IMG/VR virus record: IMGVR_UViG_2681813320_000011 | DNA length: 5,959 nt | Source: a virus | Taxonomy: Duplodnaviria > Heunggongvirae > Uroviricota > Caudoviricetes | Direction: 5' to 3' (one strand) | Shown: in pieces, positions 4,448 to 4,717 of the stretch | Layout of the letters: each line of letters begins with the position of its first letter | How positions within the stretch are numbered: position 1 is the stretch's first letter | Notes under the pieces: generated by a model | Databases searched by the model: none | What the model was told of the DNA's origin: nothing | The model's input: only the letters and a program-made list of their open reading frames with translations | Program-made: the position numbers and the translations under genes

Positions 4448-4556
4448 CGGTTATTTCCTTTTAGTGATGAACCTTGTCTCACAGGAATCCAGCCCACAGA
4501 AAGGCACCGACAGCCAAACCGGTATCCTCAAGGGTCATCCAGAAAGGTTCTGTGTT

Positions 4557-4578
4557 GTGAGATGCGCGTGAGATGCGC
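4557..4578. repeat. Perfect tandem duplication of an 11-bp unit GTGAGATGCGC
   Basis: Seen directly: GTGAGATGCGC at 4557-4567 and again at 4568-4578, within the 270-bp spacer between the endolysin and the antirepressor-like gene. Confidence 0.6.
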
Positions 4579-4608
4579 AGAAATGACAAAGGCACCATTA
4601 CGGTGCCT
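4578..4608 (-). terminator. Candidate intrinsic terminator or attenuator hairpin inside the lysis cassette
   Basis: Minus-strand reading: GGCACC GTAAT GGTGCC (7-bp stem with flanking A-T pair, 5-nt loop; plus 4590-4608) followed by TTTGTCATTTCT. The U-tract is interrupted, so this is a weak call. Confidence 0.3.
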
Positions 4609-4717
4609 CTGCGTGAAATAATCTGCCTAACTTTATTCACTTACATTTTGCCAGTTCGCAGGATTTCGTGTTATCCGCCCGCGCTGACCAACGTCATTTT
4701 TCAGCAAAATATTCTGC

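Follow-up and report, generated by a model that had tools for sequence, protein, structure and literature searches.

What is the function of the 270-nucleotide (nt) spacer that separates the endolysin gene R from an antirepressor-like gene (ant) in the late region of an Sp9-like lambdoid, Shiga toxin (Stx)-type prophage? The spacer lies at 4448–4717 of the 5,959-nt stretch of IMG/VR record IMGVR_UViG_2681813320_000011 analyzed here (the window), with all genes concerned on the minus strand. An earlier note on this DNA had described it as structured, and in this it is borne out: the hairpin, the tandem duplication and the short open reading frame (ORF) that it listed are all present, each in its place. 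With somewhat better than even confidence we read the spacer as holding a conserved, laterally mobile cassette that travels with accessory genes in late operons and combines a terminator with a leader masking the Shine-Dalgarno (SD) sequence, the two acting as a double lock. Judged by sequence comparison, the cassette most likely forms a new family within a known class of elements, that of SD-sequestering leaders, here joined to a terminator. The comparisons that follow establish its conservation, its anatomy, the complementarity of its arms with some compensatory changes, and its non-coding nature.

The central part of the cassette is a stem-loop directly upstream of the ant start. In general its core runs from GAACCUUUCAGGAUGA to CAUCACUAAAAGG over 90–97 nt, with the start codon of the next gene 8–11 nt beyond, and a basal helix is predicted to pair CCUUUC(A/U)GGAUGA... 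with ...UCAUCACUAAAAGG, enclosing the ribosome-binding site of that gene. RNAalifold applied to an alignment of 45 representatives (A1) pairs CCUUUCAGGAUGACCCUUG (window 4547–4529) with CAAGGUUCAUCACUAAAAGG (4476–4457) and places the SD inside a predicted 17-pair helix that closes a long irregular hairpin; 97.1% of the cells in this alignment are paired, versus 31–44% for slid partners. A covariance model was built and then used to align diverged members, namely those of the P22 type and the degenerate second copies found in Edwardsiella and at locus L144. In the resulting alignment (A2) 96.7% of cells are paired, versus at most 46.6% for slid partners, and 10 pairs are changed on both sides (44 cells), a result reached by none of 500 shuffles. 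Compensatory changes are seen at 82:164 (GC to AU in nine sequences), 105:135 (GC, AU or CG), 90:156 (UA to CG) and 64:125 (UA to CG), and the P22-type copies carry matched insertions. Thus, the conserved, SD-containing helix with compensatory change that marks an SD-sequestering leader is found, with thin support within the SD helix itself. Indels and substitutions cluster in the predicted loops and the arms remain complementary. Pair 108:133 is CG in 27 sequences and UG in 25, and pair 86:160 is GU in 7; since G.U pairs such as 108:133 fit the gene strand only, the element has a strand, and matches of the covariance model to the reverse strand are weak. In 53 representatives the SD is predicted to be unpaired with a median probability of 0.04, versus 0.54 when the 5' part is shuffled, and in all but one of the 53 (that is, in 52) the value lies below the control. 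An alternative pairing, GAACCUU with AAGGUUC, which would leave the SD free, was rejected: it is possible in most copies and broken in Edwardsiella variants, and by inspection the variants that break it gain a pair in the SD-sequestering helix. The earlier note had put the translational gate at an ATG in a hairpin loop; this does not hold, the predicted gate being a separate stem-loop of about 94 nt (4550–4457) whose anti-SD arm pairs with the ant SD.

Upstream of the leader lies a hairpin that resembles an intrinsic terminator. Its core, AGGCACC-GUAAU-GGUGCCU (4608–4590), has seven pairs and a 5-nt loop and extends to an 11-pair stem, GCAGAGGCACC/GGUGCCUUUGU, of −18.3 kcal/mol, which is followed by an interrupted U-rich tail, UUUGUCAUUUCUG. 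The G+C-rich stem and short loop of a Rho-independent terminator are thus present. The tail proper, UUUGUCAUUUCU (4589–4579), has only three consecutive U and passes a rule of at least four T in seven, with relatives carrying U5–U7; in the window, then, the hairpin is strong but the U-tract weak. When no mismatch is allowed, the leader has an equivalent hairpin and a T-run before it in 88 of 101 distinct copies, and several additional copies have a terminator-like hairpin with one mismatch. The stems vary yet remain complementary (AGCCUCGC/GCGGGGCU, AGCCCGG/CCGGGCU, AGCCAC/GUGGCU and GGGUCGC/GCGACCU, next to AGGCACC/GGUGCCU in the window), and the hairpin of 933W carries a C.A mismatch (−6.1 kcal/mol).

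Between terminator and leader the cassette holds a small hairpin, H1, whose general form is GCGC-wUCnCAC-GCGC, and a single-stranded linker. It is here that the perfect 11-nt tandem repeat of GCGCATCTCAC pointed out earlier is found (4557–4578, minus strand). For 11-mers duplicated exactly and side by side within 270 nt a probability of about 6e-5 is estimated, which makes chance an unlikely explanation. Present and perfect as it is, the repeat is not a separate feature: it corresponds to H1 plus the next 6 nt, and the GCGC starts of its two units form the conserved H1 stem. H1 is retained without the repeat as UGCGU/ACGCA in Edwardsiella, GUGUC/GACAC in Providencia and GCGCU/AGCGC in Citrobacter, and pair 14:24 of A2 is CG in 43 sequences, UA in 8 and GC in 1. 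H1 as a boxB or nut element was set aside, without a formal test, on the grounds that its loops are not GNRA-like, the order of elements is reversed and the site is in a late operon; the variant GCGCU-GUCGCA-AGCGC resembles the P22 boxB stem, a likeness likewise set aside. The linker is C/A-rich in all copies and variable in sequence. That of the window (4551–4562, minus strand) contains CACAACA, and other copies are C/A-rich without this heptamer, which PMC4104026 gives as the consensus sequence targeted by the GcvB R1 seed; its occurrence here may be a coincidence.

The cassette is widespread. Pattern scans returned at least 145 main-type copies, which have 50 distinct cores and come from IMG/VR and from 12 enterobacterial genera (Escherichia, Salmonella, Klebsiella, Raoultella, Siccibacter, Entomohabitans, Enterobacter, Citrobacter, Serratia, Edwardsiella, Biostraticola with a partial copy, and Providencia), and 117 copies of a diverged P22-type class were extracted; a 16-base pattern used on genome contigs is too short, with about 13 real copies among the 120 loci it listed. 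Among complete E. coli genomes, 880 of 5426 carry the cassette, in 2973 places, with a median of 3 and a maximum of 10 copies, and no annotation lies under any of the matches listed in these genomes. Permissive Rfam scans (E up to 1) of the window and five related loci gave no relevant match. At 85–92% identity, window positions 4448–4579 recur in phages that have neither R nor ant in common with the window. In Salmonella ST104 and Oslo the cassette follows Rz and precedes a KilA-like or Rha-like gene, and in Klebsiella phage 2 LV-2017 it sits between tail genes, before a KilA-N gene. In these phages, as after R in Stx phages, unrelated genes are immediately preceded by a block of about 130–165 nt, with similarity stopping at the start codon. 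Depending on the locus, the next gene encodes KilA-N, P22_AR_N, Phage_pRha, ANT/KilAC, AntA or HNH_3, and the preceding gene is always a late one: most copies follow Rz, those of Stx phages follow R, and others follow a tail gene. The orientation of the block is constant in all copies, its end is always an SD and a start codon, and the sequence 5' of the terminator is unrelated between the contexts after Rz, R and tail genes.

Closer to the window, the gene order S-R-spacer-ant-Rz is common to 933W, VT1/VT2-Sakai and hundreds of further Stx phages, in which the spacer, repeat included, is about 93% identical. This identity is unevenly spread: the stretch from hairpin to ant start is 98.8% identical among Stx phages, versus about 85% for the R-proximal part. 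Prophages that have R (rrrQ) and lack ant match the window over 4632–4760 only, a stretch made up of the R terminus and the next 85 nt, and then diverge, with other small ORFs following the R flank in the one such prophage inspected. By this comparison, the spacer is made up of the R-proximal 85 nt of the endolysin module and a cassette copy at about 4612–4448. Cassette, ant and a 49-amino acid (aa) ORF lie between R and Rz in the window, and in ST104, Oslo and P22 Rz directly follows the endolysin gene with no ant-like gene between, as expected of an insertion into a late operon. The features of the region are collected in Table 1.

Table 1. Features of the spacer and the adjoining genes, in the direction of transcription (coordinates of the window).
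Feature	Position	Strand	Remarks
Holin S	5866-5651	minus	Phage_holin_2_1
DUF1327 ORF, 114 aa	5302-5646	minus	between holin and endolysin
Endolysin R	5251-4718	minus	Phage_lysozyme
R-ant spacer, 270 nt	4448-4717	minus	
3' flank of the endolysin (R) module	4632..4717	minus	outside the cassette; variable among Stx phages
Intrinsic-terminator-like hairpin	4579..4612	minus	core stem 4608-4602/4596-4590, loop GUAAU 4601-4597, extended stem 4612-4586
39-codon frame	4479..4598	minus	peptide MVPLSFLRISRASHNTEPFWMTLEDTGLAVGAFLWAGFL; ATG 4598-4596; not conserved as a gene
Small hairpin H1	4563..4579	minus	UGCGC-AUCUCAC-GCGCA; predicted folds
C/A-rich single-stranded linker	4551..4562	minus	UCUCACAACACA; unpaired in predicted folds
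Leader stem-loop, 94-nt core	4457..4550	minus	GAACCUUUCUGGAUGA...CAUCACUAAAAGG; covariance model 159.7 bits
5' (anti-SD) arm	4529..4547	minus	CCUUUCUGGAUGACCCUUG; RNAalifold columns 48-66 with 123-142
3' arm	4457..4476	minus	CAAGGUUCAUCACUAAAAGG; holds the ant SD AAGGA, 4460-4456; RNAalifold
ant-like gene	4447-3878	minus	ATG 4447-4445; P22_AR_N + ORF11CD3; directly 3' of the leader

Termination, translational repression and a trigger we infer from comparison and thermodynamics, and the scheme they suggest is the following. In the lysogen, the terminator would halt stray, non-antiterminated transcription before it reaches the accessory gene. Q-modified late transcription, which in established lambdoid biology is expected to ignore terminators, would pass it. 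The leader would fold during its synthesis and mask the ribosome-binding site even after read-through, with the Ant/KilA-N/Rha-type protein being made at a low level, or only once the helix has been opened. It might be opened by RNase III, through cleavage of the long irregular hairpin, by a protein that binds GGA, such as CsrA, or by a small RNA (sRNA). As leads only, the long leader hairpin looks like an RNase III substrate, three GGAU motifs are found in the leader, and CAGGAUG resembles a CsrA site. The near-invariance of both arms, as compared across the copies, suggests that the leader has an additional partner. The controlled accessory gene would be a potentially harmful one, and a double lock on that gene is the most likely function of the cassette. 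The notion put forward earlier, that the spacer gates both transcription and translation, is plausible for the ant-like gene by way of a terminator-like hairpin and an SD-pairing leader, not by way of the 39-codon frame; its extension to the small transmembrane and spanin genes downstream finds no support, as nothing indicates more than ordinary polarity. A further-reaching proposal, possible and held only tentatively, is that the cassette represents a very widespread, undescribed cis-regulatory RNA family of enterobacterial temperate phages, with members in P22, the 933W/Sakai Stx phages and thousands of prophage copies, that works as a switchable riboregulator, a conserved trans factor recognizing the invariant arms. 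That factor (RNase III, CsrA via the GGAU motifs, or an sRNA from the core genome are the candidates) would time the synthesis of Ant/KilA-N/Rha and HNH proteins during lytic growth, and, with up to 10 copies per enterohemorrhagic E. coli (EHEC) strain, one signal would coordinate the accessory genes of several prophages.

Several observations weigh against a double lock. On the side of the terminator, the U-tract of the window is interrupted and the hairpin is absent from the list of a strict terminator scan, which misses it because its longest stem consumes part of the T-run; a looser scan lists it. What had been proposed as a terminator or attenuator stands as a conserved terminator-like element on the gene strand. 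On the side of the leader, 14 of the 17 SD-helix pairs are invariant in A1 and covariation rests on few positions, while A2 was fitted to the model and hence leans towards structure. The folding z-score of the window leader is only −1.9. The window is, moreover, the exception among the representatives, with an SD-unpaired probability of 0.70 that equals its control; 933W has 0.55, and all Stx types have shorter SD pairing. In the window the anti-SD arm carries a U at 4541 (CTTTCTGG vs CTTTCAGG) that is private to it (1 of 145 copies, the others having A), and this A-to-U change (A-to-T in DNA) is absent even from the 99%-identical locus of E. coli 2013C-3252. It costs the SD-sequestering helix one pair, the window being the sole non-pair in column 54, and is predicted to make the translational lock leakier here than in relatives; the minimum-energy fold of the window retains the SD helix. 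No promoter, trigger or trans partner was found by promoter scan and short-word BLAST: there is no sigma-70-like promoter on the minus strand between 3800 and 5400, 4609–4717 included, no conserved −10/−35 pattern is apparent by inspection across the cassette copies, and the leader matches all of P22 and the window at chance level only in short-word BLAST (best 15/16, E 0.35). Finally, selection may not account for all of the very high sequence identity between genera, part of which could stem from recent horizontal spread.

One rival starts from the 39-codon frame itself, which the earlier note had linked to the gating of translation. The frame exists (4598–4479), its ATG made up of the last two hairpin-loop bases and the first stem base, with AGG 7 nt upstream in the stem, and it runs unbroken in 933W and in Sakai Sp5 and Sp9, as it does in the window. 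A real gene starting in the hairpin loop, for a small hydrophobic protein or a leader peptide, whose translation couples to or controls ant, could draw on further points: the stop codon (4479–4481) lies just before the 3' arm, where a terminating ribosome could in principle open the SD helix; RAST-type records, those of PA phages, are alone in calling the frame, which PGAP leaves without a call; and in Gifsy-1 orf45 is needed for anrP translation though its peptide is unconserved (PMC4825925). We nevertheless regard such a gene as very unlikely. At full length the frame is confined to a single subtype of Stx phage. In type II Stx phages, which share hairpin, R and ant, it is only 12 codons long; the peptide is 42% identical (tblastn) where the DNA is 79% identical; and it is frameshifted by a 1-nt deletion in the Klebsiella phage and has lost its stop in ST104. 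Through 1–2-nt indels the core varies over 90–97 nt by non-multiples of three, which is incompatible with coding, and the ends of the ORFs that cross it are spread between −59 and +44, counted from the main ATG. Those from the conserved AUG of GGAUGA fare no better, having 12–46 codons where recorded, with scattered ends and a stop within a few codons in type II; this AUG is conserved because it is paired with UCAUC. The start codon of the 39-codon frame and its SD are buried in the 11-pair stem, the 39-aa peptide has no Pfam match, and the coordinates of the frame are absent from the supplements of the Sakai small-gene ribosome-profiling study, under whose conditions late genes are silent. 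Comparison of the copies thus indicates that the 39-codon frame is not a conserved gene, which argues against annotating a 39-aa "hypothetical protein"; a local, sequence-independent effect of an upstream ORF may exist in the Stx type I subtype.

The remaining explanations can be judged by where the block sits and by what varies within it. Boundary or linker DNA without RNA function, mediating homologous exchange of accessory modules or merely recently spread, would sit exactly at mosaic joints, as the block does; type I and type II halves have recombined in locus L174, downstream genes are freely swapped, many near-identical copies occur per genome and most positions are invariant. We hold this to be unlikely, given that indels and substitutions fall in loops with the arms kept complementary, that compensatory changes occur (64:125, 82:164 and the matched insertions of the P22 type), and that a recombination linker needs neither G.U strandedness nor a constant orientation nor an end at SD and start codon. 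Quite unlikely, in our view, is an IsrK-type riboregulator, in which a short RNA from a promoter just upstream ends at the hairpin and acts in trans to make the read-through leader translatable. The logic would be that of Gifsy-1 isrK-orf45-anrP, with its terminator, a leader conserved in nucleotides and variable in peptide, an antirepressor-like gene and a 272-nt spacer, but from one context to the next the terminator is preceded by unrelated sequence, with no conserved sRNA body or promoter and no promoter-like site in 4609–4717. Rfam gives no IsrK match, the leader model finds nothing in Gifsy-1 (E up to 1), the two spacers do not align, and Table S2 of Tree 2014 lists no Hfq-bound orphan peak at the R-ant spacer of Sakai Sp5. 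That the hairpin is simply the terminator or 3'-end stabilizer of the S-R lysis transcript, perhaps defining an sRNA in the 3' untranslated region of R and leaving the rest of the spacer neutral, would suit its stability (−18.3 kcal/mol) and its position 110 nt after the R stop. It is very improbable in view of the R-only prophages, which have the R flank without the hairpin, of the non-R contexts, in which the hairpin accompanies the leader, and of conservation, which is highest after the hairpin (98.8% vs about 85% R-proximally). The least credible, and one to which we give hardly any weight, is a DNA operator in which the GCGC-N7-GCGC palindrome and the perfect repeat bind a phage or host regulator: other genera retain complementarity and not sequence (UGCGU/ACGCA, GUGUC/GACAC), which fits a folded strand rather than a protein-recognized duplex, and the downstream proteins are of different families, so that autoregulation via one site is unlikely.

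Some copies and neighboring regions deserve separate mention. The cassette also occurs in tandem, with two pattern matches about 1.37 kb apart at loci L171 and L209 and a second model match about 1 kb away at L144. At three Edwardsiella loci (L037, L046 and L188) nothing but an 11-codon remnant (MNASAASSLNV) comes after the first leader, and a second, diverged leader (53–59 bits) lies about 320 nt downstream. In VT2phi_272 (L009) an IS3-family element at 2750–3963 is inserted at the ant start, so that the leader is followed by ATGAATATGATGA and then by insertion sequence (IS) DNA; the IS separates the leader from the rest of ant, and its frameshift site is matched by the Rfam ALIL pseudoknot model. 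A 392-nt record filed under Xanthomonas pisi (L112, NZ_JPLE01000286.1) is a type II R-ant spacer of an E. coli Stx phage and is probably a contamination of that assembly. No tRNA or tmRNA-like origin was found for the leader. The motif sequence was not found printed in the literature searched, searches with ECs1214/L0109 and with rha/IHF gave nothing usable, and the Pas-sRNA and HnrS papers do not cover the R-ant spacer.

Within the window, the ant-like gene is followed by the 49-aa ORF, Rz/Rz1 and, further on, HNH endonuclease and terminase genes. The DUF1327 ORF has a counterpart at the same position in Sakai Sp9 (ECs1783); S is directly followed by R in 933W and Sp5, and in the R-only prophage of strain R2 a YdfR-family gene occupies the position of the DUF1327 ORF. 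The region from Rz to DUF3950 (window 2332–2819 and 2994–3387) differs from that of Sp9 (L006, 5631–5910). An Sp9 segment with a strong terminator (CUGCUGUGACUCCAACACGGCAG-U7), which is probably the 66-nt sRNA HnrS/EcOnc12, is absent from the window, and in its place is AT-rich sequence with small ORFs of 80 aa (3009–3251) and 52 aa (2512–2670). HnrS/EcOnc12 in the window was rejected on this ground, the Sp9 segment having no counterpart here; the published table coordinates lie about 142 nt below those of NC_002695.2. At 1725–1790, a short way before the genes for the HNH endonuclease and the terminase, an inverted G-run and C-run (GAGGGGGGGCGG ... GATCCCCCCCGGG) surround a T8 run, and this site may be a cos or packaging region.

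If the leader works as proposed, a common and unannotated control element stands before the much-shuffled Ant, KilA-N, Rha, AntA and KilAC genes. Some proteins of these types have been reported to harm host or phage, or to influence prophage induction. For the lysis cassette of Stx phages, the double lock, if true, would offer a testable handle on when ant is expressed. The analysis also yields a seed alignment and a model for a candidate RNA family, and bears on the leader of P22 rha and on the likely mis-annotated start of that gene. In addition, recombination between prophages could be promoted by this repeat of about 160 nt, of which an EHEC genome may contain as many as 10 copies.

Among known systems, the leader of P22 rha (NC_002371 39426–39643, between gene 15/Rz and rha) is a true homologue. 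It scores 62.2 bits (E 4e-12) with the model and shares the terminator, H1 (GCGC-ACCGCA-GCGC), the C/A linker, the core and a Rha-family gene; it differs in a 9-nt insertion in the 5' arm with matched changes in the 3' arm, and in having its SD at the edge of the conserved block. The leader is unannotated in the P22 record (L252, region 39575–39646), where the rha start is a GTG at 39575 inside the leader. Homologous Rha proteins start at the position of an in-frame ATG, 39644 in P22, that has its own SD (GAAGG), and from these sequences the 23-codon N-terminal extension of P22 Rha is probably an annotation artefact. In P1/P7 c4-icd-ant and P22 sar-ant an antirepressor is likewise held down post-transcriptionally at its ribosome-binding site. 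These systems, of which the sar features are annotated in the P22 record, use a dedicated antisense RNA, whereas the cassette of the window is a strand-specific block with no apparent antisense promoter or terminator, and no Rfam C4 match was found upstream of ant in the window and five related loci.

In function, the nearest analogue, though not a relative, would be isrK-orf45-anrP of Gifsy-1, where a Rho-independent terminator is read through and a structurally silent leader follows (Hershko-Shalev et al. 2016, PMC4825925) and where orf45 is conserved in nucleotides and not in amino acids (PMC4825925). The likeness lies in an antirepressor-like gene preceded by a spacer of about 270 nt, in a terminator, and in a leader with a short ORF, termination and silencing being inferred for the window. 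The two loci lack homology in sequence and structure, the Rfam IsrK model and our leader model both being negative and the spacers not aligning; AnrP and the window Ant have no significant similarity; and no conserved promoter or sRNA body precedes the terminator of the window cassette. Whereas the orf45 stop overlaps the anrP start (AUGA), the window frame stops at 4479–4481, 31 nt before the ATG at 4447, and whereas the Gifsy-1 locus follows Q, the window-type cassette follows lysis or tail genes. Like the morons of lambdoid late operons (Juhala et al. 2000, as cited in PMC4104026), the cassette and its gene form an extra unit between late genes (R/Rz, Rz/terminase or tail genes). Classical morons have their own upstream promoter and a downstream terminator and are expressed in the lysogen, whereas the terminator of the cassette is upstream, no promoter was detected and the ribosome-binding site is predicted to be masked. 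The arrangement suggests a logic opposite to that of a moron, one that would keep its gene silent in the lysogen.

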